Shown here: in pieces, positions 2,228-61,378 of the stretch
How positions within the stretch are numbered: the stretch's first letter is position 1
Layout of the letters: every line of letters begins with the position of its first letter
Virus record (IMG/VR): IMGVR_UViG_3300028581_000022
Coordinates: 1 to 64,000 of that record
From: a virus
Taxonomy: Duplodnaviria; Heunggongvirae; Uroviricota; Caudoviricetes
DNA: 64,000 bases
Strand: one strand, 5' to 3'
Program-made: the position numbers and the translations under genes
The notes under the pieces: model-generated
Told to the model about the DNA's origin: nothing
What the model saw: the letters and a program-made list of their open reading frames with translations, nothing else
Database searches by the model: none

Positions 2228-2468
2228 CAGTTTTGAAAAAACTGAAGTGCGTGGGCAAAAAAATAAAAATTATGGTAATTAACATACAAACTTTACTACG
2301 AAGTACTGAGAGCATTGGTTATATTTGCTGTTATACACAGTTGCTTGTAACAAAAATTAATTATTTACGTATAACTTAAAAAAGCAATTGTGTATAACGG
2401 ATTAGGGCTTGGCGAAGTGGTTGAACCCGAAGCTAAATAGAATTACTAAACTTAAAAATTAAAAACGA

Positions 2469-3206
2469 ATGTTGATAGAAGAACTAAACAGCCATTTTGC
2501 CAAACCCGTGTTATCGGCTGGCGTTTTACGAGTTTTGATTGCCTGTGAAGAAAGTCAAACAGTAACAAAAGAATTTAGAAAATTAGGACACGAAGCATTT
2601 TCGTGTGATATTATCCCTTGTAGTGGTGGACATCCCGAATGGCATATTCAACACGATGTAACCGACTTGCTAAAACTAAAATGGGATATAATAATAGCAC
2701 ACCCACCTTGTACACATTTAGCAGTAAGTGGTTCAAGGCACTTTATTAAAAAACGAGAAGATGGCAGACAACGTGAAGCAATAGATTTTTTTATGAAATT
2801 CCTTGATGTTGATTGCAAATTCGTAGCAGTTGAAAATCCAATAGGGATTATTAGTGGAAATTATATTAAAGAACACTTTCCCGATTTGGCTGAAAAATAT
2901 GGATTACCAATAAAACATCAACAAATTATTCAGCCGTTTGAATTTGGCGACCCTGTTAAAAAATCAACTTGCTTATGGTTGAAAGGATTGCCAAAATTAG
3001 AACCTACAAACAATGTAGCTGACGAAGTGAAGTATTATGTAGATAGTCGAGGGATAAAGCAAAGTGAATGGAATGTTAGGCAACTTGAAATTGATGGTAA
3101 AAAATATGGCTATGATACAGCAGAATTTAAAAAACATCGTTCTAAAACATTTGATGGAATTGCAAATGCTATGGCTGTGCAGTGGTCATCTTACGCTTGC
3201 CGATAA
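2469..3206 (+). CDS. putative methyltransferase-like protein (Pro-Cys catalytic-type motif)
   Basis: 245 aa; IIAHPPCTHLAVSG resembles motif IV (P-C) of cytosine-C5/RNA m5C methyltransferases; no canonical FxGxG motif seen, so assignment tentative. Confidence 0.3.
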   Translation: MLIEELNSHFAKPVLSAGVLRVLIACEESQTVTKEFRKLGHEAFSCDIIPCSGGHPEWHIQHDVTDLLKLKWDIIIAHPPCTHLAVSGSRHFIKKREDGRQREAIDFFMKFLDVDCKFVAVENPIGIISGNYIKEHFPDLAEKYGLPIKHQQIIQPFEFGDPVKKSTCLWLKGLPKLEPTNNVADEVKYYVDSRGIKQSEWNVRQLEIDGKKYGYDTAEFKKHRSKTFDGIANAMAVQWSSYACR

Positions 3207-3327
3207 CGGTTGAGAATATAAGTAGTAACCGATTTGAAACAAAATACTTTGAATTACGTATAAATGATTGTAAAAAGTAATAACTTAAATAAACCACATA
3301 ACTCGGTTATTACTTATATTCTTTGTT

Positions 3328-3675
3328 ATGTGTTGTTTTATTATGAATGAAATATTGTATTGTGTTTATAACACAAAAAAAATAGAAACCCCCGTTTTAA
3401 TAGAAATTAACGATTTTAAAAAAAATGGTAATGAATATTCGTTTGAAAAACACGAACATGGTTATCTGAATAAAATTAAATTAGGTAAAGATAATATTTT
3501 CATTGATTATGGGTTATCAATGGGTGATTCCCCGTTAGAATGGATTTATATCTATACCACAGATAAAAATTTAGCATTAACAATATTTGAAGAAGAATGT
3601 ATTGATATTGGTGCTGGTATGTATGGTGGTAAATATCGTGAATTTATGGAAAGACGTTCCAAAAATAACACATAA
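3328..3675 (+). CDS. hypothetical protein
   Basis: 115-aa ORF (alternative Met at 3343). Confidence 0.4.
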   Translation: MCCFIMNEILYCVYNTKKIETPVLIEINDFKKNGNEYSFEKHEHGYLNKIKLGKDNIFIDYGLSMGDSPLEWIYIYTTDKNLALTIFEEECIDIGAGMYGGKYREFMERRSKNNT

Positions 3676-4223
3676 CGGACACAGATATATTTCAGGTTTT
3701 TATTTTAATATATATATATATACAAATAAACTTTAATATGAAAAAGGAACTTAAACATTTGAAAACATTTGAACAGAACACAGATAAAAACTTGAATATA
3801 TCTGGTGTTATACAACGTAATTTGTTATTATAAAAATCTGATATTGAATACTTACGAAGTGTCGGATTTACACAAGATAATTCAAAAAATTCTGGTCTTT
3901 ATTATTATGAAGATGATAATAAAACTAAGGTAATTGTACCACAAAAAGATGGTACATATAAATTAGAATTTTATGAATGGTATGATGATGGTGATGGTAA
4001 TTATTACGAAGATTTTGATAAGGAATATAGTAAGAAAGGACAAACATTACAACAATTTATAGAAGAGTGGATTTAATTATGTTGTATAACGGTTGGGTGT
4101 ATGAGAAGGTTTGCTTTGATAAACTCTCATAATTACCACAACTGCTGATAGCAAACTTTCTTATACACCTTGTTAGCACCAGTACGGTGAATTTAAGGTA
4201 AACTTGATTAATTGAATAATTAG

Positions 4224-4571
4224 TTGTATATTTGTAAAAAAAAAAGAATTATGGAAAAAGATATTGATATTAAAATAACTGAAACAAAATCAGTTCAATC
4301 CGTTAGTTATGAAGAATTATATATATCATTAAGGGATAAATTTAGAATTATGATAATGATTTTGGTAGAAACCTTAGAAAATTATTATCATATGGAGAAT
4401 AAATATAAAGGGTTTAAAATATTAGATAAAATATTACTATATTTAATATACCGAAGATGGAAAAAATTAAGTGGTAAGATAGATGGTAAGACATTTTTAT
4501 CTAGTGATTACGCTAAAAGACGAAAACACTATGAATCCTTAATGTGGGAGATTAGAAAAAATGACTTATAA
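4224..4571 (+). CDS. hypothetical protein
   Basis: 115-aa ORF. Confidence 0.4.
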   Translation: MYICKKKRIMEKDIDIKITETKSVQSVSYEELYISLRDKFRIMIMILVETLENYYHMENKYKGFKILDKILLYLIYRRWKKLSGKIDGKTFLSSDYAKRRKHYESLMWEIRKNDL

Positions 4572-4896
4572 TAATAAAATTAAATTTAAAAATATGAAAG
4601 AATTAGTTAAAAAATACGAAAAACTTTATTTCCTTGATGGAATACCAGAAGAAAATAAATTAGAATTATCTCACTTATATGAAGATTTTACTAAATTTTT
4701 AATAAACGTTGATAATTGCGAAGAAAATTTCCAAACATTATTTATACCTATAACTAGAAAATTGTACGTAGAATTTAAGGAAACTGATTTTATTAAAATA
4801 TTTGAAATGTATTCAGAATGGTGTGTTATTTCTAAGTTAGAAAATGATTATGATATATTTAAAGGGTTTATAGAATATTATAAATCGAAGCACTGA
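4561..4896 (+). CDS. hypothetical protein
   Basis: 111-aa ORF overlapping previous by 11 nt (operon-like). Confidence 0.4.
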   Translation: MTYNNKIKFKNMKELVKKYEKLYFLDGIPEENKLELSHLYEDFTKFLINVDNCEENFQTLFIPITRKLYVEFKETDFIKIFEMYSEWCVISKLENDYDIFKGFIEYYKSKH

Positions 4897-4903
4897 TGTA
4901 GTA

Positions 4904-5761
4904 TTGGTGCTAACTATCATATATAAACAAGTATACCCTAAACCCTTTAAAATCAATACTTTGAATCAAAAAATTATAAAGATTTGTGAGCAAAAGTTTA
5001 TATACTTAAACTATTCTCCAAGAACAAAAGATAATTACATAAGTCACATCAAAGACTTTCTTAAATCTTTAGGTGAAAAGCAAATTATTCATTGTAATTC
5101 CAAAAATTTTCAGTCCTACTTGGACAAGTATCAATTTTCCTCTGTTTCTCAACAGAATCAAGTGATAAATGCAATCCGTTTTTTATACAAATACGGGCTT
5201 GATAAAAAATATGATAAAGTCAATTTTAACAGACCAAAATCAGAGAAGAAACTTCCAAGAGTTATTGATGGAGAATTTATCAAAGAAAGATTATCTAAAA
5301 TTGAAAATCTTAAACACAAAGCAATTCTCACACTAACATATTCAGTTGGTTTAAGAGTTTCTGAAATTGTCAATATAAAAATTGAAGATATTGATTCAAA
5401 AAGGATGCTGGTTCATATAAAAAATGCTAAAGGTAGGAAAGATAGAGTGGTCCCATTATCACAAAATGTCCTCAATCTACTGAGAGAATATTTTAAAGAA
5501 TATAGACCAACTGAATATCTATTTAATGGCCAAATGACAAATCAATATTCTGTAAGAAGTTGTCAAGAAATGTATAAAAAATACATTGAATTGTCTGGAC
5601 ATATACATACTCTAAGACATAGTTGTGCCACAAATCTTCTAGAAAATGGAACGGATTTAAAATTAATACAGAAAATTCTAGGGCATTCTAGTGTTAAAAC
5701 TACTGAAATTTATACTCATGTTTCAAATCAAATATTGTCAAAAGTAAATTTACCCATATAA
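4904..5761 (+). CDS. tyrosine recombinase / phage integrase (XerC/D-like), TTG start
   Basis: C-terminal catalytic motifs LRVSE (Arg I), KGRKDRVVPL, HTLRHSCATNLL (H-x-x-R), GHSSVKTTEIYTHV (catalytic Tyr); N-terminal SAM-like domain; first codon is TTG. Confidence 0.85.
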   Translation: MVLTIIYKQVYPKPFKINTLNQKIIKICEQKFIYLNYSPRTKDNYISHIKDFLKSLGEKQIIHCNSKNFQSYLDKYQFSSVSQQNQVINAIRFLYKYGLDKKYDKVNFNRPKSEKKLPRVIDGEFIKERLSKIENLKHKAILTLTYSVGLRVSEIVNIKIEDIDSKRMLVHIKNAKGRKDRVVPLSQNVLNLLREYFKEYRPTEYLFNGQMTNQYSVRSCQEMYKKYIELSGHIHTLRHSCATNLLENGTDLKLIQKILGHSSVKTTEIYTHVSNQILSKVNLPI

Positions 5762-5800
5762 AATTTGGTAGTGTCAAAAACTTTACTTACCTTTGCACTA
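5761..5800 (+). promoter_or_regulatory. phage promoter (Bacteroidetes sigmaA-type -33 TTTG / -7 TACCTTTG)
   Basis: AAATTTGGTAGTGTCAAAAACTTTACTTACCTTTGCACTA; member of >45-copy family. Confidence 0.6.
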
Positions 5801-5814
5801 CTAAACTAATAAAT

Positions 5815-6204
5815 ATGATACAAGACTTTGAACAACAAGAAATGGAGCTTCTTAAAAAAGAACAAGAACTCTATGATGCCAAAAAAATAACCGATACCCT
5901 ATCGGATTATGTAAACTATCGCAAATCAAACAAAGCGTTTGCAGAAGCATTCAAACGTGAACATAGAACCCTACAACAATCCATGTTCCGCATGTTCCTA
6001 GAACTAATTGAAGATATGGCTTCTGAAAACTATCATACAGATGGTCGTAATGAAGATAGCAAGAAAATGGCTCAGACATTGATTAAAGGCTTCCAAATGG
6101 TAAAGAAACAAGAATACCTTGAACAAGGCGTGTCTGAACAACGTGCAGAAGAATATGTGTCTGGTGAAGGAGCCAAACCAAGCAGATATTTACCTTTTAT
6201 TTAA
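5815..6204 (+). CDS. hypothetical protein
   Basis: 129-aa ORF 15 nt downstream of promoter. Confidence 0.5.
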   Translation: MIQDFEQQEMELLKKEQELYDAKKITDTLSDYVNYRKSNKAFAEAFKREHRTLQQSMFRMFLELIEDMASENYHTDGRNEDSKKMAQTLIKGFQMVKKQEYLEQGVSEQRAEEYVSGEGAKPSRYLPFI

Positions 6205-6219
6205 TAAAAAAACTATATT

Positions 6220-6543
6220 ATGGATAAACAAACATACATGGTATTGAACCATGAAGGTGAGCACGAATACGACATCGTGAAAGAACTTACTGATGAAGGT
6301 GAAAAAATTACCGCTTATCGGTCAAATAGCAAAATCTGGTATTCACATGTTAGAGGTGAAAAGATTATGTCAATAACCAATGATGGTAATGGTATAAAGT
6401 TTGATAAAAAGATTAAGGAACTAGATTATGAATTTTTGGTAGTTTTAAGGCTTTTAATCAACTTTGAACATCAAACAGATGCAAACGCTATTAATAGAGA
6501 AAAGTATCGTATAATCGAAAATAAAACGCTAATTGAACTATAA
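6220..6543 (+). CDS. hypothetical protein
   Basis: 107-aa ORF. Confidence 0.45.
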   Translation: MDKQTYMVLNHEGEHEYDIVKELTDEGEKITAYRSNSKIWYSHVRGEKIMSITNDGNGIKFDKKIKELDYEFLVVLRLLINFEHQTDANAINREKYRIIENKTLIEL

Positions 6544-7013
6544 TGAATATATTTGTCCTAGATACCGATACCAAGAAATGTGCTGAATATCACGTTGACA
6601 AACACGTGGTCAAAATGGTGCTGGAAACAAGCCAAATTTTATGTGGGGTTCATCATATGACAAATAGCTTGTTTGACATACCATATGGGTTGTCACATAA
6701 GAATCATCCTTGTTGCATTTGGGCCAGAGAATGTATTGAAAACTACAATTGGCTTTGTGAGTTGGGTATTGAACTGTGTGAGGAATATACCTATCGTTAT
6801 GGTAAACGTCATAAGTCACAAGACATAATTGAATGGGCTATGGTTCATAAACCTAATTTACGTGTAAATGGTAATATCACTACATTTGCTTTAGCAATGC
6901 CAGATGAATGTAAAATAGGTAATGCTGTTGATTCATACAGACAATACTATATCGCTGAAAAACGTAGTTTCGCTAACTGGAAAGAAAGAGAAATCCCATT
7001 TTGGTTTAAATAA
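6543..7013 (+). CDS. conserved hypothetical protein (His/Cys-rich; N-terminal MNIFVLD..KHVVKM motif)
   Basis: 156-aa ORF with start overlapping previous stop (ATGA); motif feels family-like but I cannot name it. Confidence 0.45.
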   Translation: MNIFVLDTDTKKCAEYHVDKHVVKMVLETSQILCGVHHMTNSLFDIPYGLSHKNHPCCIWARECIENYNWLCELGIELCEEYTYRYGKRHKSQDIIEWAMVHKPNLRVNGNITTFALAMPDECKIGNAVDSYRQYYIAEKRSFANWKEREIPFWFK

Positions 7014-7023
7014 ATTTTGTCAT

Positions 7024-7362
7024 ATGAACAATCCGTGGTACTATAAAATAAATGGTGAACTCTATAAAAAACCTAAGCCATGTTTTGATGGTGACTTTGT
7101 TCACATCAAGTCATTCACTGGGTGCTTCAAAGTCCATGAAATAAAATTAGAGTACTTTGTTGTCGTTAAAAACGGTGAAAAGAAGAACATACCTTGGGAC
7201 TGCTTTATCTGTCTTAAAGGTCAAGGAAATAGCGAAGAAACGCTATTAAAACGTAGACTTAATAAATTAGCCACTACAATAGAAAGAAACATTGCTGAAC
7301 AACTTGCCATTAACAAAATAGTTAAAGAAGAATTACAAAATCTTAGAAAAACATTTGCATAA
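7024..7362 (+). CDS. hypothetical protein
   Basis: Listed ORF 6922..7362 overlaps upstream gene; first Met after upstream stop is 7024 (113 aa). Confidence 0.4.
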   Translation: MNNPWYYKINGELYKKPKPCFDGDFVHIKSFTGCFKVHEIKLEYFVVVKNGEKKNIPWDCFICLKGQGNSEETLLKRRLNKLATTIERNIAEQLAINKIVKEELQNLRKTFA

Positions 7363-7389
7363 TTCATTTCCTTTTATTACCTTTGCATC

Positions 7390-7788
7390 ATGGATAAATC
7401 GCAATTAATAGAAAAGGTCAAGCTTATGTCACATTTGCCACAACCTGATAGAGATAAAATTCTAGGTTGGGCAAATGCTTTGCCCAATACTTCATCTAAG
7501 GTAACCCCAAATGAATTTAAAGTTGGTGATGTCTTTATGCACCCCATATTTGTACACCCTTATATTTTATTGGAAAAGCATAAAGAGCACTGGGTCTGTG
7601 GTATGTTGACATCAGAAGCTGATTGTGCCGAAATATTGGAACCATGTCAGTCAAGATTTTTTAATAACAATTTCTTTACAAAAATATTATTTACGGTGAA
7701 AGAACCTGTCGGTTCATTTATGTCAATATATGAAAATAAATCACATATGCTAAAGGTTTATAAAACTTTAAAACAAATTTTTAATTAA
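7390..7788 (+). CDS. hypothetical protein
   Basis: 132 aa; preceded by TTACCTTTGCA -7 box at 7370-7380. Confidence 0.5.
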   Translation: MDKSQLIEKVKLMSHLPQPDRDKILGWANALPNTSSKVTPNEFKVGDVFMHPIFVHPYILLEKHKEHWVCGMLTSEADCAEILEPCQSRFFNNNFFTKILFTVKEPVGSFMSIYENKSHMLKVYKTLKQIFN

Positions 7789-7842
7789 AGTTGTAAAGTT
7801 CAAATATTTTCCATACCTTTGCATTACTAAAATAAAAAAAAT

Positions 7843-8019
7843 ATGATTTTAAGAACAAGTTTAAAAATTCTAGTATTCTTGCTGGTCCTTTACGTAGGAT
7901 GGTACGTATTTAATTTCCTAACTGCTTGGGGTGGTATAGCAGTAATTCTCGGAGCCCTAATAGGTGCAGGTGTCTACCTTGAAAATGACATCAAAAATTA
8001 TATTAACAAAAAAGACTAA
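7843..8019 (+). CDS. small membrane protein (58 aa, two predicted TM helices)
   Basis: ATG 7843 right after promoter -7 box CATACCTTTGCA (7812-7823); hydrophobic LVFLLVLYVGWYVF and GIAVILGALIGAGV segments. Confidence 0.35.
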   Translation: MILRTSLKILVFLLVLYVGWYVFNFLTAWGGIAVILGALIGAGVYLENDIKNYINKKD

Positions 8020-8044
8020 AAAATTAATTAAAAACAAAAAAAAA

Positions 8045-8857
8045 ATGAAAAAAAGTTTCAAATCAATTCTAGCAATCTTCGTATTAGCAATCTTAATGCA
8101 ATCATGCGAATCAGTACAACCAAACTATCAAGGTGTACTTATGACAAACTTTGGTAAAAATGGAAAATCAGATTTCCAAAATGTAAAAGGCCGTGTATCC
8201 GTAATCGCTCCTGGTACCTCTCTTTATCAAGTCCCCCTATTTGAACAACGTGCAAACTTTGGAGGTGCTACGTTACACCTAAAAGCAGCTGACAATACAG
8301 AATTTACATCAAAACCACTTTATTCTTATAGGGTTATTGAAGACCGTGCTGTTGATGTTGTTTTTCAAAATGCTCGACTAGGAAGCGGAAATGAATTCAT
8401 GTCAGCCCTTGAAGATAACGTACTTGAACCACACATCTATGATATTATCAAAGAAGAAAGCCGTAAATATGTTACAGACTCTCTAATGGCTAATGGTGGT
8501 TCACTTAAATTTGAAGAAAGAGTACAAGTACTAGTGTTAAAATCATTCGAAGAAAAAGGTTTGAAACTCATATCATTCAGCTGCAACCTTGACTTTAGTG
8601 CAAAGGTAAAAGAAAAGATTGATAATCGTAACGAAGTTAATACAAACTTGTCAGTGCTTGACCAACAAATTCAAGAACAACGGAAAAAGAATGAACTCGC
8701 AGAACTTAAAGCACAAGAAAACATTATCTTGTCAAAAGGTTTGACTGATGAAATCCTACAAAAAATGGCAATCGAAGGTTGGGTTAAAGCTGGATGTCCT
8801 ACACCACAAGTTGTTGGCGACAACTCCAAAACATTTTATAACCTTGTTCACAAGTAA
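8045..8857 (+). CDS. lipoprotein with SPFH/band-7 (prohibitin-like) domain
   Basis: MKKSFKSILAIFVLAILMQSC lipoprotein signal (lipobox LMQSC); C-terminal region (LDFSAKVKEKIDNRNEV..QEQRKKNELAELKAQENII..) resembles SPFH signature; listed ORF starts 7964 but signal peptide Met is at 8045. Confidence 0.5.
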   Translation: MKKSFKSILAIFVLAILMQSCESVQPNYQGVLMTNFGKNGKSDFQNVKGRVSVIAPGTSLYQVPLFEQRANFGGATLHLKAADNTEFTSKPLYSYRVIEDRAVDVVFQNARLGSGNEFMSALEDNVLEPHIYDIIKEESRKYVTDSLMANGGSLKFEERVQVLVLKSFEEKGLKLISFSCNLDFSAKVKEKIDNRNEVNTNLSVLDQQIQEQRKKNELAELKAQENIILSKGLTDEILQKMAIEGWVKAGCPTPQVVGDNSKTFYNLVHK

Positions 8858-8872
8858 TAATAAATAAAAATA

Positions 8873-8906
8873 AACCCCTTGTCAAAAAAAAAGGCAAGGG
8901 GTTTTA
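8873..8906 (+). terminator. intrinsic terminator
   Basis: CCCCTTG-tcaaaaaaaaagg-CAAGGGG hairpin followed by TTTT. Confidence 0.6.
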
Positions 8907-8920
8907 TAATTTTAAATAAT

Positions 8921-9046
8921 ATGAACTGGTTAATATTTTTATTATCATTTGGGGTTATTCTCATAGTAGCTTACCTCATCCTCAAAAAAATGGGTGTTGA
9001 TATTATAGATAGTATCATGGATTCATTTGATGATTTTTATGATTAA
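8921..9046 (+). CDS. small membrane protein (41 aa, one TM helix)
   Basis: MNWLIFLLSFGVILIVAYLILKK hydrophobic N-terminus; holin-like size but no further evidence. Confidence 0.3.
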   Translation: MNWLIFLLSFGVILIVAYLILKKMGVDIIDSIMDSFDDFYD

Positions 9047-9083
9047 ATTTGGAAGTTTCAAATATTTTTAATAATACACCAAA

Positions 9084-9266
9084 ATGAAGGGAAAAGCTAT
9101 ATTCAAATTTAATTCTGGTAACCTAGCTTTATTATGCTCTGCTTGTAGCAAGATAATTAAAGTTGGTTATGAATTCACTGAAGATGAACATAAAGCATGT
9201 AAAGGAGAAAAACACCTAAAACCACAATATTGCGAAAGCTGTAAACCAAATGATACAAATAAATAA
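9084..9266 (+). CDS. small Cys-rich (zinc-ribbon-like) protein
   Basis: 60 aa with CSAC..C..C..CESC pattern. Confidence 0.4.
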   Translation: MKGKAIFKFNSGNLALLCSACSKIIKVGYEFTEDEHKACKGEKHLKPQYCESCKPNDTNK

Positions 9267-9387
9267 AATACTTTTGGATTCTAATAATAGAATGCTTAGA
9301 ATAGGTTTTGGGAAACATATTGGAGACTGGTTTTTTAGAGTTGATTTATGGTGGGTTGGCTACAGATTTAAAAAAAAATTGCTCTAA

Positions 9388-9420
9388 ACTTGCAAATTTA
9401 AAAAATTTTATCTACCTTTG
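9388..9420 (+). promoter_or_regulatory. phage promoter upstream of tRNA-like element
   Basis: -7 box TACCTTTG at 9413-9420 with upstream TTGC; no ORF follows on + strand for ~220 nt. Confidence 0.45.
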
Positions 9421-9550
9421 CATTACTAAAATAAATAGGTTGATTGGGGAATGATGCCACACAATTTGGTTTGGTATCGGAGGTGCGTGCTAGTAACGCC
9501 AATCGTAAAAGAGGATGTCCACACGCCCATCTTCCTCTTTCCTAAAACAT

Positions 9551-9622
9551 AGTCAGGTGGTCGATAATGGTAATGGCGATTACGGAAGTAATAGAATACA
9601 AGTTCGAATCTTGTCCTGACTA
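9551..9622 (+). ncRNA. tRNA-like element (canonical T-arm and 7-bp acceptor stem; aberrant D-loop and anticodon arm)
   Basis: AGTCAGG..CCTGACT acceptor pairing, T-arm ACAAG-TTCGAAT-CTTGT, D-stem GTCG/CGAT with 13-nt loop containing duplicated TAATGG; only a 4-nt loop on the ATTAC/GTAAT stem, so not a canonical tRNA. Confidence 0.3.
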
Positions 9623-9641
9623 CTAAACAAAAATAAAAGTT

Positions 9642-9881
9642 ATGAATAGAGAAGAATATATAAAACAAAGAAATAATAATGCTTTTAATTTTCAATTATT
9701 TTATGATTATTATAAATTAAATTGTAAAGAACCTTTAGTTAAATCTTTAGATGATTTTATGGTTTATTTTGGTTTATATTTTAATATTAATCAAGAAAGT
9801 ATATTAGCTTATTTTGATAATAAATTTACAGTAATAAAAGTAATTAATATTAAAACACAACAAATTATTAGATATGAGTAA
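9642..9881 (+). CDS. hypothetical protein
   Basis: 79-aa ORF immediately after tRNA-like element. Confidence 0.3.
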   Translation: MNREEYIKQRNNNAFNFQLFYDYYKLNCKEPLVKSLDDFMVYFGLYFNINQESILAYFDNKFTVIKVINIKTQQIIRYE

Positions 9882-10257
9882 ATTAGAAAAAGAATTTATA
9901 CCTTACGAACAAGTATTAGAACTTAAAGAATTAGGATTTGATGAACCTTGTTTTGGTTTATATCATAATGATAAAACATTCTATCCTACTCAGTGTAAAT
10001 CACATGAGCAATTTCATGGACAAATATGTTCAGCACCACTATATCAACAAGCATTTAGATGGTTTAGAGAGAAGTATCACATAATTGGTGAAGTGAAATT
10101 CAAGGGTGGGAAAACCACTAAAACTGCTTGGTATGATTATGTAATATACTCAGAAATTGATTGGAATGATGAAAATCTAAATGAACAATGGAAGAAACAC
10201 GAAGAAGCAGAACTTGCTTGTCTTAAAAAATTAATTGAATTAGTAAAACAGAAATAA
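9874..10257 (+). CDS. paralog family protein, copy 1 (EFIPYEQ..LKELGFDEPCFG..FRWFREKY..EEAELACLKKLIELVK)
   Basis: 127 aa; shares N- and C-terminal blocks with the next two ORFs. Confidence 0.6.
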   Translation: MSKLEKEFIPYEQVLELKELGFDEPCFGLYHNDKTFYPTQCKSHEQFHGQICSAPLYQQAFRWFREKYHIIGEVKFKGGKTTKTAWYDYVIYSEIDWNDENLNEQWKKHEEAELACLKKLIELVKQK

Positions 10258-11027: not shown

Positions 11028-11931
11028 TATGAAAAATTTACACGTATTACCAACGGATAAGCCAAGTAAACTTTACAAAGTAAATGATAAGTTATACTTT
11101 GAAGAGTTTCCTGTTAGAACAGTAAATGCTGGAAATCAATATTTGTACATCACATCTGATGATGAAGAAGTTAAAGATTGTTATGCTTTAACTAATTCTT
11201 TCAAAAGTAAAATTATTAAAGTTGATAAAAGCAATGAAGAACAATGGCATCATTTTTACAATTGTAAAAAAATCATCCTAACAACAGACCAAGAACTTAT
11301 TGCTGATGGTGTACAAGCTATTGATGATGAGTTTCTTAACTGGTTTGTTGAGAATCCAAGTTGTGAGAGTGTTGAGGTTGAATTTTCACATAAGGATAAA
11401 TATGGATTTTTACAAAATAAAGCTACTTACAAAATAATCATTCCAACAGAAGAACCTACAATTTCAGAAGAAGCTAAACAAAGAGCTGCAAACTATATGA
11501 GTTTAAAAGGTGCGTTAGACTCTCATTATGTAGATTTCAGCAATCCTAATGCTGATAAAATAACTTCAGGAACTACAAATAAACCTTTGGGAAATAAACA
11601 AACAGCAGTAGATTGGTTAATTGAAAAATTAACACCTTCAATATCGTTGCAACAAAAACATATTGATGAGTATAAAAAACAAGCCAAAGAAATGGAGCAA
11701 AGTCAATTTGATAAAATGACAGAAACATTTATTAAAAATAGAGAACAAACAAGACCTTTAGTTTTTGAAAATGGTTTTTTTGAAGGATTTGAATATGCTT
11801 TAAAAAGTGCTGAAGATTATTATGAGAAACTTGCCAAAACAAAATTTGCAGATGATGACTTCACAAAAGATTACCTGCAAGAAAAAAGCAATGAAATTTA
11901 TAACGAAAAATTTAAAAAATATGGAAACTAA
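11005..11931 (+). CDS. hypothetical protein with VDFSNPNADKITSGTTNK motif
   Basis: 308 aa; motif recurs in ORF 62651..63043. Confidence 0.5.
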   Translation: MKLLKTNNMKNLHVLPTDKPSKLYKVNDKLYFEEFPVRTVNAGNQYLYITSDDEEVKDCYALTNSFKSKIIKVDKSNEEQWHHFYNCKKIILTTDQELIADGVQAIDDEFLNWFVENPSCESVEVEFSHKDKYGFLQNKATYKIIIPTEEPTISEEAKQRAANYMSLKGALDSHYVDFSNPNADKITSGTTNKPLGNKQTAVDWLIEKLTPSISLQQKHIDEYKKQAKEMEQSQFDKMTETFIKNREQTRPLVFENGFFEGFEYALKSAEDYYEKLAKTKFADDDFTKDYLQEKSNEIYNEKFKKYGN

Positions 11932-12475
11932 ACAAACAGCAATGCAACAACTAATTAATGAAATAGTTGAACATCTTACATACGATGATGATTTGAGTGA
12001 TGATTCAAGAATGACTCTTGAAACTATTAGATTAAGATGTTTAGGTAAATTATCAGTTGAGAAGGAACAGATAATTGATGCTCATACAGAAGGTTATGTT
12101 ATTGGAGGAGGAAATGGAGATTTATATAATTGCAAACAATACTACAACGAAACTTATGGAAGTGAGGGAAGTGATGCTAAAGATGTAGTATTAGGATATA
12201 AAACTTCTTTAGATGCTCAAATGTTAGATAGGATTGAACCTAAACAAGAAACATTAGAAGAAGCCGCTGAAAAATATGCTAATGAATTACCAGAACCTTA
12301 TAATTATGGGATTAACTCAGATAAGAAAAAAGGTTTTATTGAGGGTGCTAAATGGCAACAAGAACAAATACTACAATTTCTTTACTCAGAAATAATTGAA
12401 CGTAGACCCTATTCATCATCTAAAATGTGTGAAGTTGTAATTGAATTTATTGAACAATTAAATACTAAAAAATAA
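11921..12475 (+). CDS. hypothetical protein (paralog of 63033..63455 N-terminus)
   Basis: Listed ORF 11807..12475 overlaps upstream gene in another frame; Met at 11921 gives METKQTAMQQLINEIVEHL, matching MENRKTAMQELFDNLESI. Confidence 0.5.
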   Translation: METKQTAMQQLINEIVEHLTYDDDLSDDSRMTLETIRLRCLGKLSVEKEQIIDAHTEGYVIGGGNGDLYNCKQYYNETYGSEGSDAKDVVLGYKTSLDAQMLDRIEPKQETLEEAAEKYANELPEPYNYGINSDKKKGFIEGAKWQQEQILQFLYSEIIERRPYSSSKMCEVVIEFIEQLNTKK

Positions 12476-12476
12476 A

Positions 12477-12761
12477 ATGAAAACACTTGAAGAAATAGCA
12501 GAAGAATTTTTAATTAGACAAGGTTGCCAGAGAATGTGTTGTAATGACCCAGAATGTAATGGTGTTGGTGATTTCTTTGAAGATGTACAACCAAAAGATT
12601 TAATTGAATTTGCTAAATTGCAACAAGAAAAAATGTATAGTGAGGAAGATATGAGAAAAGCGTTTAAAGATGGTAGTTGGGTGACATCTTGGTCTGATAT
12701 GGGTATTTCGATGAAATATGATACTTTTGAACAATGGTTTGAACAATTTAAAAAGAAATAA
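12477..12761 (+). CDS. hypothetical Cys-rich protein
   Basis: 94 aa; CQRMCCNDPECNG. Confidence 0.45.
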   Translation: MKTLEEIAEEFLIRQGCQRMCCNDPECNGVGDFFEDVQPKDLIEFAKLQQEKMYSEEDMRKAFKDGSWVTSWSDMGISMKYDTFEQWFEQFKKK

Positions 12762-17258: not shown

Positions 17259-17285
17259 ATCATTAATCAATTAAATAACAAAAAA

Positions 17286-30619: not shown

Positions 30620-30687
30620 AAAAACCATAATAAATTTGGTAATACCAAACCTTTTTCTTATCTTTGTTCCACTAAACAATAAACAAT

Positions 30688-55376: not shown

Positions 55377-56717
55377 TTAAAAACTGTTTAATTTTTCATT
55401 TAACAATTTTTTAATGAGAACTTTAGTTTCATTAATTTCTTCATAAGGTATGATACTAACAACCCAATCTAAATTACCTATTTTACCTCTTTTAATTTCT
55501 TTAAATGTTGGGTTTTGTGATTTTATATTGCTTAACCTATTATCTAAATTACCAGAATCGTCAAACAATAAAGAAATTTTATATATTTTAACATTACCAG
55601 TTTTATACGATATTCTGTAGTTATTCATATCAACATTAATAGAGTTAATATCAATATAAACATTTTTGGTTTCTGAATTTAATTTATTTCTTAAATCATT
55701 GATATCAGTACCACTTATTTTTTGTGTTGTTTGATTAGTTATATTTGACGTGTTTTTATTATCAGAAGCAACAAAAAAGCTTTGTCTATATGTTATAACT
55801 TTACCATTTAAATTAAACGAAATATCAATTGGTTTACCAACTTGTTTAGCACCACCACCATAATAATTTTCTAATCTATCAATCAAACCAGTTATTTGGT
55901 TATCGTGTCTTTCAGCATATCTTGAACCTATTGAACCTCTGGTTGTAAAATGATTATATGCAATTCCATCTTGTGATTGTATAATATCACAAGATGCTTT
56001 GGTTATTATTTTATCACCTTGTATGTATGTTTTTACTTCTATATTAGAGACATCAGGTGTATTACCGTTTTGAATTTGATTGGTTAATTCATCTTCTATT
56101 CTTTTTTCAAAATCATCTTGTAATCTATTTGAACCTAAAGCACCATGAACTAAATCTAAATCTGGATTTGATATTGGTTGTGAAGCTTCAAAATTTACTT
56201 TAGATAATACTTTTTGGGTTTGTGTTTGTGTTTGTGTTGTTGGTGTTAAATTCATACCCTTGCTTACGTTAGGACTTCCCATTAAACCTAACCCTAAAGC
56301 AGCAGCAGCTATTGATTTTTTTATATTTTCATTAGTTTTTTCTTTTCCATTCTCCCATTTTTTCTTAGCTTCTTTTTCCATTTTTTCTATTCTATCATAG
56401 TAATCTGGAAATTCAGTAACGTGGTCCATTGCTATTTCAGTCGCTTTCTCTTTGTCATTGGTATGTTCTTTTTCAATCTCAATACCTTTTTTAATTTGAG
56501 ATTCAATTTTTTCAACTGATACGTTAAATTTTTTTGCTATGTCTTTAATAGACAACTTATCAGCTTTACCACCTTTGATTGAATTATTTTTTTCCACAGA
56601 TTCATTAGCATTTGCGTAAAGAGCAGCTAAATATTTATCTACCGAACCTTTGGTACAACCAACTTTGGCTCCAGTATCTTTTTTGTACACGCAATTTCCT
56701 TTAACTTTATAAGGCAT
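55377..56717 (-). CDS. hypothetical protein with conserved phage N-terminal domain and QTQTQTQ linker
   Basis: 446 aa; N-terminal LSIKDIAKKFNVSVEKIESQIKKGIEIEKEHTNDKEKATEIAMDHVTEFPDYYDRIEKME resembles a widespread phage domain of unknown function. Confidence 0.5.
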   Translation of the reverse strand: MPYKVKGNCVYKKDTGAKVGCTKGSVDKYLAALYANANESVEKNNSIKGGKADKLSIKDIAKKFNVSVEKIESQIKKGIEIEKEHTNDKEKATEIAMDHVTEFPDYYDRIEKMEKEAKKKWENGKEKTNENIKKSIAAAALGLGLMGSPNVSKGMNLTPTTQTQTQTQKVLSKVNFEASQPISNPDLDLVHGALGSNRLQDDFEKRIEDELTNQIQNGNTPDVSNIEVKTYIQGDKIITKASCDIIQSQDGIAYNHFTTRGSIGSRYAERHDNQITGLIDRLENYYGGGAKQVGKPIDISFNLNGKVITYRQSFFVASDNKNTSNITNQTTQKISGTDINDLRNKLNSETKNVYIDINSINVDMNNYRISYKTGNVKIYKISLLFDDSGNLDNRLSNIKSQNPTFKEIKRGKIGNLDWVVSIIPYEEINETKVLIKKLLNEKLNSF

Positions 56718-56733
56718 TTTATTAAAATTTTAA

Positions 56734-57615
56734 TTATGATTTACTTAAATTAAATCTGGTTGTTATTGTTTTTACAGTTGGTATTAGAATTTCTGATATA
56801 ATATTAACTATTTCTATCGCACTAAAAACAATACCTATTAATGGTTCTTTTTTACCAAAACCAATAAACCAGTTTAAAATTTCATCAACCCCTAAGTTAG
56901 ATGCCGCATCAGATATTAATTCTTTTAAACTATTAAAAATATTAACAATACTAGTAATGTTTGTAATTTGATTTTCTAATTGCTCTATTGCTAAATTTAA
57001 TAACTTATCCAACCAATTTTTTTTACACCATATTAACATTACTGTTAATCCAAGCATTGTTACAAAACCAACCCAACCTTTTGAATTTAAAAATTTATTA
57101 CCATATTCTAATATTTTATCTAAAAAAATTGTTAATTTGTCAGTAAACCCTTTAATTTTAAAACCTAATTTAGTTAAAATATTATTAATTAATTTTTTAA
57201 TCTCAACTATTGTTTCATTAAGATTTTTTTTAACATTTTCAATAGCTTCTTCCATTAATTTTGGGTCTAATAAAATATTTTTAAATAATATAGCCAATTC
57301 TTTTGTGTCTTTAATTGTTTTAATAAGTTGTAAAGATTTTTCTTTACCTTTTTGAACAACACTACCTAAATAACTATTGATAGAATCAATCATATTTTCA
57401 ACTATAATTTGTTGTTCGATAACTGTTTGTTTATAAGAAAATAAATTATTTTCAAATAAAGATTTATCAACACCTAAAATAGTAGTAACATAATAATCAT
57501 CTTCTATAAGCAATAAAGAATGTTCTGACAATAATTTTTTTTTATTATGTAAGTATAATTCTTCTCTTAAAATTTGTTTTGTACTATACATAAATCTCTG
57601 GGTGTAGTCTACCAT
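56734..57615 (-). CDS. hypothetical membrane protein
   Basis: 293 aa; TM segment GWVGFVTMLGLTVMLIWC. Confidence 0.5.
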   Translation of the reverse strand: MVDYTQRFMYSTKQILREELYLHNKKKLLSEHSLLLIEDDYYVTTILGVDKSLFENNLFSYKQTVIEQQIIVENMIDSINSYLGSVVQKGKEKSLQLIKTIKDTKELAILFKNILLDPKLMEEAIENVKKNLNETIVEIKKLINNILTKLGFKIKGFTDKLTIFLDKILEYGNKFLNSKGWVGFVTMLGLTVMLIWCKKNWLDKLLNLAIEQLENQITNITSIVNIFNSLKELISDAASNLGVDEILNWFIGFGKKEPLIGIVFSAIEIVNIISEILIPTVKTITTRFNLSKS

Positions 57616-58330
57616 ATTTTCTAATTATGATACCAGCAACAGCATTTGCTTCGTTTTCAATTGGGCTCCCATCTTCACCATCTATAACAGCGTCTTTAAG
57701 TTTTCCATCTAAATTCTGTTTATGATGTACCAATTCATGTGCTATAGAACGACACACATCGATTATTGCTCTGTCTTTGACATAAACTACAAGAAAACCA
57801 GTTGAATTGTAATACGCAGTTGTTTTTAAATCTGGAGTTCTCTCAAAAGCTAGTTTAACTTGTACACCATCATTTATCCCTAAAAACTCATTAGCAAAGT
57901 TTGTAAAGTCAGCTACTATTCTAATAGCTGACTCTTCTTTTGTCATAAGAGCTTCTCTAAGAAGTTTTTTTATAATTGGTTTCATGTTTTCATTTAATTT
58001 AGGGTATCTTATCATTGAATCCATGAATTCAAAGTTTTTGTATATGCCTTTATTATGTTTAAAACCGAAACGTTTATAAAATTGAATAAGTCTGTTTTTA
58101 TTTCCACCAAAATCAGAAGAAGGTGTTAGTGTCACTATTTGTTTATTTCTGTCAGCATAATTAACTATTGCTTGCATAATTTTAGTACCCACACCACCTT
58201 GTCTAGCTTCTGGTTTTAAAACTATTCTACTAATTTTTAAACTGGTTCTATTTTCATAAATATCCAATCCGTCTAGATAATCACTGTAAAGTTTTTTAAT
58301 TTCATCTTCAATCATAATTATAAATATCAA
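57584..58330 (-). CDS. GNAT acetyltransferase-like domain fused to HExxH metallopeptidase motif
   Basis: N-terminal ARQGGVGTKIMQAIVNYA (GNAT motif); C-terminal SIAHELVHHKQ (HExxH). Confidence 0.5.
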   Translation of the reverse strand: MIFIIMIEDEIKKLYSDYLDGLDIYENRTSLKISRIVLKPEARQGGVGTKIMQAIVNYADRNKQIVTLTPSSDFGGNKNRLIQFYKRFGFKHNKGIYKNFEFMDSMIRYPKLNENMKPIIKKLLREALMTKEESAIRIVADFTNFANEFLGINDGVQVKLAFERTPDLKTTAYYNSTGFLVVYVKDRAIIDVCRSIAHELVHHKQNLDGKLKDAVIDGEDGSPIENEANAVAGIIIRKYGRLHPEIYV

Positions 58331-58333
58331 AAA

Positions 58334-58360
58334 GGCCCCAAAAAGGGGCCTTTATTATTT
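58334..58360. terminator. bidirectional intrinsic terminator
   Basis: GGCCCC-aaaaa-GGGGCC + TTTATTATTT. Confidence 0.55.
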
Positions 58361-58361
58361 A

Positions 58362-60161
58362 TTTAGATTTAGATTTACTACCCTTTATTATTATGGCTTC
58401 TTTTTCTTTAATAAAATCTATACTAATTGTTTCACCTTCTTTTATGTTTCCATTTAAAATTTCATCAGCAACAGCATCTTCCACATAATGTTGAATGGCT
58501 CTGGCTAATGGTCTAGCACCATAAGCTTCATCATATCCTTGTTTAGCCAAGTATTCAACCGCTTCTTTGCTTATTTTTAATTTGAAGTTCATTTCATTCA
58601 AACGTTTTTCTAAGCTTTCAACTTCAAGATATATGATTTTATGTATATCTTCTTCTGTTAGTCCTCTGAATATTATAGCCTCATCAATACGATTTAAGAA
58701 TTCTGGTCTGAACTTCTTTTTTAAAGCCTTTTCAATTATCTCACGTGCTTTGTTTTCTTCATTAACAATAGTCGCAGCCGTTTCAAACCCTAAGCTCTTT
58801 CCAAAAGAATTAACTTCTTTAACACCAATATTTGATGTCATGATAATAAGAGCGTTTTTAAAGTTTACTTTACGACCTAAACCATCAGTTAGTTGACCTT
58901 CATCTAATAATTGAAGTAACAGGTTGAAAACGTCTTCATGTGCTTTTTCTATTTCATCAAATAAGATTACGCAGTGTGGTTTTCTTCTTACTTTTTCAGT
59001 TAGTTGACCACCTTGTTCGTAGCCAACGTAACCTGGAGGCGCACCAACCATTCTGGATACTGAGTGTTTTTCCATATATTCAGACATATCCATTCTTACA
59101 AGCGCATCAACATCACCATAAACATGTTCAGCCAATAATTTAGCTAATAAAGTTTTACCTACCCCGCTTGAACCAAGGAACATGAAAGAACCAACTGGTT
59201 TATTTTTATTTTTGATACCGATACGATTACGCTTTATAGCTTTTACGACTTTAGTAACGGCAGCATCTTGTCCTATAACTTTACCAGTAAGTTCTTTATC
59301 CAAGTTCATTAGTCTTTTGCTTTCCTGTGTTGATATTTTTGTCAAAGGTATACCAGTCATCATTGAAACCACTTCAGAGATTAGTTCTACACCAACCACA
59401 GTTGTTTTTTTCTCTAGAGTTGCATTCCAATCATCCATAGCCGATTGAAGTTGCTCTAGAATTTTTCTTTCTTCATCTCTAAGTTTGGCAGCTTCTTCGT
59501 ACTTTTGTTTTAAAACCACCTCTTTTTTCTTTTCTAAGATTTGGCTTTTCTTGATTTCTAATTCTTTAATTTTTTCTGGTTTTTCCAACACAACATTTGT
59601 TGTTGCACCAGCTTCATCCAAAACATCAATTGCTTTATCTGGCATCGACCTATCCATGATATATCTAGCTGATAATTTAACACATTCGTCAATTGCTTCT
59701 TCAGTATAAGTTACTTTATGGTGTTTTTCATACTTTTCTTTGATATTCATTAGAATTGTTTTGGTTTCTTCTAATGTTGGCTCTTCTACCAATACTTGTT
59801 GAAAACGTCTTGTAAGTGCTCCATCTTTTTCAATATTCTCACGATATTCATCCAATGTTGTGGCACCAATGATTTGTATTTCTCCACGAGCCAAGGCTGG
59901 TTTAAATATATTTGAAGCATCTAATGAGCCAGAAGCGTTTCCAGCTCCAACAATCGTATGTAGTTCATCAATAAAAAGAACTATGTCTGGGTTTGCTTTG
60001 CACTCTTCCAAAACAGCTTTCATTCTTTCCTCAAATTGGCCACGATATTTTGTACCAGCAACAATTGATGCTAAATCTAACGTGAATATTCTTTTGTTTA
60101 TTAGTGTTCTAGGTGCGTCACCATCTTTAATAAGTTGGGCCAGACCTTCAACAATTGATGT
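58362..60161 (-). CDS. ClpC/ClpB-like AAA+ chaperone, C-extein portion (D1 after Walker A, short M-domain, D2)
   Basis: TSIVEGLAQLI..FIDELHTIVGAG (D1 Walker B), FMFLGSSGVGKTLLAKLLA (D2 Walker A), ILFDEIEKAH, GARPLARAIQ sensor 2; part of ORF 58359..60563. Confidence 0.85.
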
Positions 60162-60563
60162 GTTGTGTGATAAAATTCCATTTGTGAAATAACGTCTGTT
60201 GGAATTTTCATTTAATTGAAAATCATACATAATTTCTTTATAACCCAAATTGTTTACTTCTAAAACCTCAGATTCTACTAAATTGCCATTATTATCAGAT
60301 ACCATAACGAACGAACCTATTTTTAGGTCTTTAACAAATATTTCAGTTAAACCAACTGCTTCAAAAGTAGTTTCATCATATTCAGTAACAAATACAATAT
60401 GATTATCAGCACATTTAAGTTCTTTTCCATCAGCTAATTTTAAATGGTATACTTCATAAAGAATTGTTTCATGTAATTTATCAATTTTTTTAAAACCAGT
60501 ATCAGTAAGAATACTAAAATTATTAATATTCCACGTTTTTGTAAATTTTTTTAATGTTTCCAT
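60162..60563 (-). other. intein C-terminal fragment (IntC, 134 aa, begins with Met) of split mini-intein
   Basis: KCADNHIVF (block B-like), MYDFQLNENSNRRYFTNGILSHN (blocks F and G ending His-Asn) immediately followed by extein Thr-Ser-Ile-Val-Glu-Gly-Leu-Ala. Confidence 0.75.
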
Positions 60564-60586
60564 TGTTATTATTGTTATTATTGTTA

Positions 60587-60676
60587 TTTGTTATTTAAAA
60601 ATTCATTTAAACTAATTTTAATAACTTCACCAGTTATATCGTTTCTAATAACTATATTAGTATCAGAACAAATACA
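60587..60676 (-). other. intein N-terminal fragment (IntN, 30 aa) of split mini-intein
   Basis: [30 protein letters not shown] follows GEPGVGK Walker A; block-A-like Cys start; then stop codon and a 20-nt TAA-rich linker before IntC ORF. Confidence 0.7.
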
Positions 60677-61378
60677 CTTACCCACTCCAGGTTCACCAAT
60701 CAAAACAGGGTTGTTTTTTTTCCTTCTGGATAATATTTGTGAAACTCTTTTAATTTGAACAGAACGGCCAGTTACTGGGTCTATTTCGCCTTTTTCAACA
60801 GCTTTAGATACATCTCTACAGAAGTTATCTAAAACTGGTGTTTTACTTTTGTTGTCACTTTGCTTTGATTTCTTTTTAAATGATTCACTTTCATCATTAA
60901 TATTTTCGTTTTCGTATACACTGTTGGTTTCATCTTTCATATTTTTTATAACATTTTTAAAATTATCGTATGTAACATCATAAAATTCGTTTAACATTTC
61001 ACTTATATTGTTCTTTTTAGCTAAAATGGCCAACATGATGTGTATTGTATCAATCATATTGTCATTTAATTTTTCACATTCTTCGTCCAAAGACTTTATT
61101 AAAGCTTTTGTTTCATCTGAAAACGGAACAGTTTTTTTATGGTAAACAACAACTCTTGGGGTTATATCACTTCTTTTGAGATGGTCTGACAATCTATCAT
61201 ATAGTTCTGAAGTATTGACTTTTAACGCTTTAAGTACCTTAACACATTCATTATCATTATCCATCAAGATAGAAAGAACCAAATACTCTGGCCTAACTTT
61301 TGAATCATTAAACGATTTCGCCTCTTTAATAGACTCGTTAATTATAATTTTAACTTTTGGGTATACTTCTCTGTTCAT
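60677..61378 (-). CDS. ClpC/ClpB-like AAA+ chaperone, N-extein portion (Clp_N repeats up to Walker A GEPGVGK)
   Basis: [55 protein letters not shown], near-identical in pattern to ClpC/ClpB D1 entry; part of ORF 60584..61378. Confidence 0.85.

Follow-up and report, generated by a model that had tools for sequence, protein, structure and literature searches.

The gene for a ClpC-like AAA+ unfoldase in a stretch of phage DNA was found to be divided between two open reading frames (ORFs), and we conclude with high confidence that the break lies within a class-1 mini-intein that is naturally and atypically split and that occupies the classic P-loop position (GK/T, the slash marking the insertion point) of the first AAA+ module (D1). 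The DNA analysed, hereafter the window, comprises the first 64,000 nucleotides (nt) of IMG/VR record IMGVR_UViG_3300028581_000022. All coordinates are 1-based window positions, and the ClpC-like locus lies on the minus strand. ORF1 (60584..61378, minus strand) encodes 264 amino acids (aa), the final 30 of which, followed by a TAA stop, form the N-terminal intein fragment (IntN). ORF2 (58359..60563, minus strand) encodes 734 aa, starts METLKKF (METLKKFTKTW...), and carries the C-terminal intein fragment (IntC) and then the C-extein. That the ClpC gene is split across these two ORFs, each carrying part of an intein, is real and heritable.

The N-extein (ORF1 residues 1-234; 60677..61378, minus strand) comprises the Clp N-domain, a linker, and the start of D1 up to the Walker A sequence GEPGVGK. 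Immediately after the Walker A Lys, Cys1 opens the 30-aa IntN (60587..60676, minus strand), which is followed by the ORF1 stop codon TAA (60584..60586, minus strand); both were read from the sequence. A 20-nt spacer, CAATAATAACAATAATAACA (60564..60583, minus strand), holds four more TAA codons in the ORF1 frame and forms the leader of ORF2. The 134-aa IntC (60162..60563, minus strand) extends from METLKKF to GILSHN, with block B (CADNH), block F (MYD...), and block G (SHN). ORF2 thus contains KCADNHIVF and MYDFQLNENSNRRYFTNGILSHN and then resumes TSIVEGLAQLI at Thr+1, the first residue of the 600-aa C-extein (58362..60161, minus strand), which supplies the rest of D1, the middle domain, the second AAA+ module (D2), the LGF loop, and the D2-small domain. 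The D2 Walker A, GSSGVGKT (59151..59174, minus strand), is intact in the window; in many relatives it is the second insertion site of the intein family. The break was placed after 30 residues, between blocks A and B, with block B in ORF2, which gives a short IntN and a long IntC. This layout agrees with an earlier reading made from the sequence alone (the sequence-only reading), which had described a 264-aa ORF ending in GEPGVGK, a 30-aa IntN, and a stop, and a minus-strand ORF beginning with Met 23 nt farther on, with blocks B, F, and G leading into TSIVEGLAQLI; its fragment lengths of 30 and 134 aa were exact.

From the ORF1 stop onward the junction reads TAA CAA TAA TAA CAA TAA TAA CA, followed by the ATG of ORF2, so that five TAA codons, including its own stop, stand in the ORF1 frame. 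The ORF2 ATG is 23 nt past the last ORF1 sense codon and 20 nt past the stop codon. The two reading frames differ (815 nt from start to start, remainder 2), and ORF1 and ORF2 could therefore not be read as one ORF even without the stops. Upstream of its ATG, the ORF2 frame is open for 9 codons only and then meets a TAA, and TAA is also the stop of ORF2 (58359..58361). The 261-nt junction DNA was 100% identical in 7 contigs from different samples and from the JGI, ENA, and Logan pipelines. The exact 734-aa ORF2 protein was found on at least 23 contigs of JGI, ENA, and Logan assemblies, and a 264-aa Clp_N ORF lay 20 nt ahead of it at 7 of 7 places among the matches listed. As far as can be judged from sequence, the identity of the junction in seven independent assemblies excludes errors of assembly or sequencing. 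The earlier claim of five in-frame stops and no sequencing frameshift was upheld by the count and by these contigs, none of which showed a contiguous ORF lacking the stop-rich linker.

The insert was deduced to be an intein from profile searches, solved structures, and a structural model. When the 30- and 134-aa fragments were fused, Pfam Intein_splicing matched at E = 1.4e-6 (28.6 bits) and Hint at E = 2.3e-5, and NCBIfam intein_Nterm matched the fused intein over residues 1-89. The Intein_splicing score rose from 18.8 bits for IntC alone to 28.6 bits when IntN was added. In a single-sequence search of the PDB, the best match was CatC (6dsl_B; E = 5.7e-7), followed by the gp41-1, PolB16, and Pho RadA inteins, while a profile of 45 family members matched VidaL (1.5e-12), gp41-1 (5.7e-11), and CatC (1.3e-9). 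IntN alone, which is too short for such a search, gave no match among the PDB sequences.

An AlphaFold2 model of the fused fragments reached a mean predicted local distance difference test score (pLDDT) of 88.4 and a predicted template modeling score of 0.79. The pLDDT was >90 over most of IntC, IntN supplied strands one and two of the modeled HINT domain, and the sole stretch below 50 (residues 28-34) coincided exactly with the split point. From a single sequence, the model of the fused intein attained a pLDDT of only 37. All of the top 50 Foldseek matches in the PDB were HINT-fold autoprocessing domains (44 inteins, together with Hedgehog and BIL domains); they included the TFIIB, RadA, CDC21, VidaL, GyrA, and DnaB inteins, with template modeling scores (TM-scores) up to 0.81. 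The earlier identification of the insert as an intein is therefore supported by the Pfam and NCBIfam intein models, by solved inteins at the sequence level, and by the HINT fold of the AlphaFold2 model.

The catalytic residues point in the same direction. Cys1 directly follows GEPGVGK and was invariant in the 45 family members. In the numbering of the fused intein, the family-wide invariant residues were C1, A82, D83, H85, D144, S162, H163, and N164, and Thr+1 (T165) was nearly so, occurring in at least 90% of members; within IntN, C1, N12, and T15 likewise reached at least 90% conservation. Blocks F and G read MYD...NGILSHN and lead directly into Thr+1. The exteins are continuous in orthologs without the insert, as in the relative L020, whose D1 site reads GEPGVGKTAIVEGLAQLI. 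Taken together, the insert is an intein with a complete HINT domain and the class-1 catalytic set of Cys1, block B His, block F Asp, His-Asn, and Thr+1.

The host protein is, on domain and alignment evidence, a ClpC-type Hsp100/Clp unfoldase with a Clp_N domain, two AAA+ modules, a short middle domain, and a D2-small domain. ORF1 matched Pfam Clp_N (E = 2.5e-12) and the NCBIfam models ClpA (positions 4-220) and ClpB (positions 5-209), and ORF2 residues 134-716 matched NCBIfam ClpA positions 219-733. The Pfam domains found in ORF2 were AAA_lid_9, AAA_2, and ClpB_D2-small, with a weak UVR match. Joining of the exteins (ORF1 1-234 and ORF2 135-734) gave a protein of 834 aa and 94.3 kDa. Among PDB sequences, this spliced sequence aligned to Staphylococcus aureus ClpC (6em9) in a single stretch over residues 13-818 (E = 3e-221), without a gap across the GEPGVGKT junction and on into [S/A]I[V/A]EGLAQ. 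The seamless junction at GEPGVGK/T and the normal Clp length proposed in the sequence-only reading were thereby confirmed, although its count of ~833 aa is corrected to 834. The best PDB matches of the joined exteins were ClpC proteins; ClpB aligned in two stretches only, which is consistent with a short middle domain of the ClpC type. An LGF tripeptide (FGKSLGFE) was read from the alignment at the position of the ClpP-docking loop of ClpC. The window is ~30% G+C and contains numerous small genes with PHROG matches, and the phage-collection genomes that matched its DNA most closely were uncultured phages of about 0.64 Mb. These observations identify the locus as phage DNA. The homologous Clp gene of those uncultured huge phages is ~512 nt shorter across the insertion site, from which it was deduced that the intein is missing there.

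The steps by which the unfoldase would be rebuilt were taken from the established class-1 pathway. One transcript would yield two polypeptides, of 30.3 kDa and 83.0 kDa, and the short IntN would dock into the incomplete IntC and so complete the fold. Cys1 would then carry out the N-S acyl shift to give the thioester, the N-extein would move to the side chain of Thr+1, and cyclization of Asn134 would free the intein fragments. A final O-N shift would create the Lys234-Thr peptide bond, restore GEPGVGKT, and produce the 834-aa, 94.3-kDa ClpC-like protein. Without splicing, ~164 residues would lie in the nucleotide-binding loop and there would be no intact D1 Walker A. Covalent splicing is therefore the only reading that leaves a functional ATPase of the conservation observed, the ratio of nonsynonymous to synonymous substitution rates (dN/dS) being 0.09-0.14 for the exteins.

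ORF1 and ORF2 apparently form one transcription unit. No terminator-like site was found between them; the sole such site, a hairpin of AAAGGCCCC TTTTT GGGGCCTTT with a T-run (58331..58353, minus strand), directly follows ORF2 and likely marks the end of the shared transcript. A Shine-Dalgarno-like motif was found ahead of none of the 36 longer genes of the window. Their leaders, among them those at 30663-30687, 17261-17285, and 60564-60588, are A-rich, with sequences such as ...ctaaacaataaacaatATG, ...aaataacaaaaaaATG, and aaacaataaacaatATG, and the ORF2 leader, aataacaataataacaataataacaATG, is of the same A-rich, Shine-Dalgarno-less kind. Since it matches the other leaders, the TAA-rich linker, to which the sequence-only reading had drawn attention, is not a special feature and is most simply regarded as a normal translation-initiation region whose stops also end the ORF1 frame. 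The leaders suggest a host with Shine-Dalgarno-independent initiation. Such initiation with A-rich leaders is typical of Bacteroidota.

The split was found to be a trait of the intein family, which, from the homologs collected, is abundant in viral metagenomes. A scan of IMG/VR gave at least 468 relatives of the intein, of which the best 80 were examined for the counts of loci given here. Within the window itself, a scan gave no second copy of the IntC family besides ORF2. In a collection of 5.8 billion proteins, 48 IntC homologs were found, and all 48 start with Met and a short variable leader before the KKF... core; a continuation upstream into an N-extein was seen in none of these 48. A motif scan (GK/C..D[TS]..(I/V)RN.xTGE...) showed a 27-50-aa IntN tail closing the same-strand upstream ORF at 62 of the 80 loci. 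Contiguous inteins occurred at two loci only, L020 and L066. In every case the insertion point lay behind the GK of the P-loop, and the +1 residue was Thr or Ser. The gap between the halves was bimodal, being ≤46 nt at 11 loci, as in the window, and ~0.9-1.9 kb at most others. The claim of an atypical split with a very short N-fragment therefore held both for this locus, where the break is reproducible in seven contigs, and for most relatives. The rarity attached to it in the sequence-only reading did not, given the at least 468 relatives, with at least four further ClpC-like D1 loci and about 25 D2 loci among the best 80.

The family occupies several P-loop ATPases. Five relatives share the ClpC-like D1 site (L010, L017, L022, L027, and L008), and about 25 of the 80 loci carry the intein at the ClpC-like D2 site, with examples in L011-L031, as do the protein matches P0001-3; L034 was judged from its C-extein to be of this second-domain type. 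Further hosts, provisionally labeled from their C-extein sequences, are TerL at its Walker A, SbcC/Rad50-like, DnaB/RecA-like, and clamp-loader-like proteins, and other AAA ATPases. L010 is syntenic with the window and shares the D1 site, an IntC of 73% identity, and the downstream acetyltransferase-like gene. L020 (IMGVR_UViG_3300032241_002679, 2129-5170) is a close ClpC homolog in which the D1 P-loop is uninterrupted and the D2 P-loop holds a contiguous cis intein of the family; the linker inside that intein, DEIQKRIKKTNNVLLFDKHELESL, is the counterpart of the N-terminal leader with which split IntC ORFs begin. In L066 the intein is likewise contiguous, with TerL as its host.

The ClpC-like gene of L017 (IMGVR_UViG_3300042888_002852, 3119-8323) is in three pieces, an atypically split intein interrupting each of its two Walker A loops. 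The N-extein and IntN (3119-3943) are followed by IntC, the middle extein, and a second IntN (4001-5479), then by a 493-aa Vsr/DUF559-like ORF (5565-7046), and finally by IntC and the C-extein (7064-8323). The two IntN/IntC pairs of L017 differ at interface residues and may be naturally orthogonal. A comparable arrangement was noted among TerL fragments, five of which (P0036, P0037, P0039, P0040, and P0047) open with a family IntC at Walker A and close with a second IntN-like tail near Walker B (for example, ...FIDE/CIGGDSKITVRNKKTGEIEQITMEEFYNRLK and a stop). These fragments imply that a pair of atypically split inteins divides such terminase genes in three. As a separate observation, the IntC ORFs of three D2 loci (L018 3725-, L023 3749-, and L028 3749-) have an extra N-terminal extension of ~60 aa ahead of the leader, MKKEIKLN.TY.LDLGS.PV.VT..E...G..CKYNNSY....

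The long gaps between intein halves were found to hold genes. In the three examined (L010, L017, and L008), each contains a mutually similar ORF of ~480-500 aa. The C terminus of the L010 and L017 ORFs matches DUF559/REase_MTES_1575, which is Vsr-like; the L010 ORF (477 aa, DUF559/Vsr-like) lies between the halves of an intein at the same D1 site as in the window. The L008 gap ORF gave no Pfam match. On these matches, the L010/L017 type corresponds to the homing endonuclease of Vsr-like type known from "fractured genes." No endonuclease gene stands between the intein halves in the window, where only 20 nt separate them, and the window is a variant without that gene. Close relatives thus show three states, namely, a cis intein (L020), a split intein with an endonuclease gene (L010), and a split intein without one (the window). 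In the proposed history, the split would have arisen by the entry of a free-standing Vsr/DUF559-like homing endonuclease gene into a contiguous intein of the family, and in the window phage that gene would most likely have been lost, leaving the 20-nt spacer.

Several points weigh against an active trans-splicing intein with this history. Splicing of ORF1 and ORF2 in trans is probable, but it is a step that we infer from the sequences. The curated cut-offs were not reached by any of the intein models, in Pfam (Intein_splicing, 28.6 versus 35.8 bits; Hint, 24.5 versus 29.7 bits) or in NCBIfam (intein_Nterm, 18.5 versus 24.5; intein_Cterm, 11.4 versus 15.6), so that the sequence-only proposal that intein profiles would recognize the 30 + 134 aa was borne out in the E values and not in the thresholds. 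Block B, TxxH, has Ala in place of Thr (ADNH), although CADNH is conserved across the family and its His (H85) is invariant; the motif is thus noncanonical, while the residue that matters for catalysis is the His. The alignment used for AlphaFold2 held 37 homologs of the IntC part and had depth for IntC only, and the docking of IntN in the model rests largely on the network's prior. The dN/dS of IntN against L010 was ~1.07, over 30 codons, which is too short to interpret. Loss of the endonuclease gene, as opposed to its never having been present, is most likely and was deduced only from the distribution among relatives.

Some of these points would suit a decaying relic. On that reading, the insertion and later deletion of an endonuclease gene broke the intein, its halves have ceased to splice, and the ClpC-like gene is effectively a pseudogene or is being lost. 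Such decay would agree with splicing being inferred, with the IntN dN/dS of ~1 over 30 codons, with the scores under the curated intein thresholds, and with the in-frame TAG in the C-extein of at least one relative (L008). It was nevertheless considered unlikely, because both ORFs are intact (264 and 734 codons), all catalytic residues are present, purifying selection on the exteins is strong (dN/dS, 0.09-0.14), with a value of 0.28 for IntC, the same split layout has been retained by dozens of phages and host genes that differ widely, and ORF2 starts exactly at the conserved split point of the family with a normal leader. Split intein halves are established to bind tightly, and the fragments could in principle serve only to dimerize the two halves of an ATPase that works as two chains. 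This was judged very improbable, since ~164 HINT residues would then stay between the Walker A Lys and Thr and D1 could hardly bind ATP, and since dimerization alone would not require C1, H85, D144, H163, and N164 to be invariant and T+1 nearly so.

A sequencing or assembly artefact is scarcely credible, and so is an ordinary cis intein made contiguous by recoding, whether through a frameshift, ribosome hopping, or a reassigned stop codon. The short A-rich repeats (TAACAATAA TAACAATAA) are prone to indels and polymerase slippage, but the 261-nt junction is identical in seven contigs from separate samples and assemblers. A contiguous precursor made by ribosomal bypass, frameshift, or reassignment was ruled out, within the reach of sequence data, by the five in-frame TAA codons and the change of frame, with the ORF2 frame open for 9 codons before its ATG; by the use of TAA to terminate ORF2; and by the many relatives with 1-2 kb, that is, whole genes, between the halves, where such a precursor is impossible. 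We therefore retain the naturally split, probably trans-splicing intein as the best explanation of the locus.

The L008 locus itself (ENA ERZ27282915 k141_2105378) has its TAG at 6698-6702, between GATTVD and YNKIIE..., where Clp proteins have Glu, and homology of the C-extein goes on in frame past it. Two readings would account for this, decay to a pseudogene or reassignment of the amber codon in the L008 phage. An IS605 OrfB/TnpB-like gene (8866-10005) and a TROVE/Ro60-like gene (11198-12664) also lie at the L008 locus.

The selection data were obtained against L010, for which dN/dS was 0.14 for the N-extein, 0.09 for the C-extein, and 0.28 for IntC. Synonymous divergence from L010 was 0.33-0.64 for the intein and 1.4-1.9 for the exteins, and the lower values for the intein suggest that it was shared more recently than the host gene. 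In a neighbor-joining tree and in segment-wise identities, the IntN and the first IntC strands of the window group with the D1-type copies, while residues 91-134 of the window intein are identical at 36 of 44 positions to the D2 copies L011 and L015 and at 29 of 44 to the D1 copy L010. These simple methods give a lead only, which hints at recombination or recent transfer between the inteins of the two P-loop sites. A more speculative possibility, which we regard as doubtful at present, is that the window intein belongs to a single lineage of P-loop-specific, atypically split inteins that moves among unrelated phage ATPases and both ClpC Walker A sites (GVGK/T), carried by a free-standing Vsr-like endonuclease. 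The possibility is raised by the mosaic window copy, the low synonymous divergence of the intein, and the presence of both inteins in L017. If true, such a lineage would illustrate, in nature, the ectopic transfer of an intein from one paralogous site to another, and it would be an unexploited source of orthogonal split-intein tools of peptide length.

Directly downstream of the ClpC-like gene lies a GNAT acetyltransferase-like ORF (57584-58330, minus strand) with PHROG and Pfam Acetyltransf_7 matches, which is kept at the same position in L010 and in L001-L007. Two further ORFs come next, of 293 aa and 446 aa (DUF5661), at 55377-57615 (minus strand). A "tRNA-???" called by ARAGORN at 9551-9623 (plus strand) has an irregular anticodon and no Rfam support and is probably a false positive. 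No Rfam family was found anywhere in the window at gathering thresholds.

The locus is of interest on several counts. Here a phage ClpC-like unfoldase would probably depend on protein trans-splicing for its assembly. For protein semisynthesis and labeling, atypically split inteins are prized when the N-fragment is of peptide length, and few natural ones have been characterized (AceL-TerL, GOS-TerL, VidaL, and PolB16). What the locus contributes is a Cys1/Thr+1 pair whose IntN is 30 aa long and whose host protein is new, a candidate tool for protein engineering. It belongs to a large, mostly unexplored intein family in phage ATPase genes, in which genes with two pairs, such as that of L017, may supply orthogonal D1/D2 pairs. 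The series from L020 through L010 to the window makes the evolution of a split intein traceable.

TerL (AceL, GOS) and PolB (PolB16 OarG) are known hosts of natural inteins with an atypical split. VidaL comes from phage genes, its hosts being T4Lh and UvsX. It is atypically split, was obtained from Lake Vida metagenomes (6vgv), and was the best PDB match to the family profile (positions 8-146; Foldseek TM-scores, 0.69/0.78); it differs from the window intein in its host genes, its shorter IntN, and its catalytic residues. Inteins of the AceL-TerL/GOS-TerL/Cat type have an IntN of 25-37 aa and an IntC of 104-115 aa (PMC11766414). The window intein resembles them in its short IntN and long IntC, its phage or metagenomic origin, its class-1 Cys1, and its being a mini-intein without an internal endonuclease. 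Its IntC is longer than theirs (134 aa), with an insertion of ~11 residues, and whereas AceL and Cat have TerL as host and Cys+1 (PMC11766414), the window intein has a ClpC-like host and the P-loop Thr+1. Cat is an engineered consensus of atypically split TerL inteins (6dsl), and its CatC, the best single-sequence PDB match, is only ~24-30% identical.

In the "fractured genes" of Dassa et al. (2009), which occur mainly in phages, a free-standing homing endonuclease gene (GIY-YIG or Vsr-like) lies between the halves of a split intein. They include gp41-1, the second-best PDB match to our family profile; the eight host enzyme types include gp41 helicase, IMPDH, DnaE, NrdA, NrdJ, DNA ligase, and terminase, and the term "Clp" occurs zero times (PMC2677866). 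L010, L017, and L008 share this layout, whereas the window has 20 nt and no endonuclease gene between its halves. Most of those split inteins are split at the canonical site (PMC2677866), and the window intein is split atypically. Insertion between the Walker A Lys and Thr is the "classic" P-loop site of Kelley et al. (PMC5050341). The classic P-loop cis inteins, such as Pho RadA and mycobacteriophage TerL1-a, share the GK/T insertion point with the window intein but are contiguous and cis-splicing, whereas the window intein is split after 30 residues; the RadA intein was among the best structural matches of the AlphaFold2 model (Foldseek TM-scores, 0.80-0.81). In the intein surveys consulted, the Clp-related intein is that of ClpP. 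No report of an intein in a ClpA/B/C-type ATPase was found in the literature searched, the coverage of relevant papers being incomplete, in agreement with the sequence-only reading, which likewise knew of no example in a Clp ATPase. No described allele matches the window intein, and the Walker A of the ClpC-like D1 appears to be a new host and insertion site among atypically split inteins.

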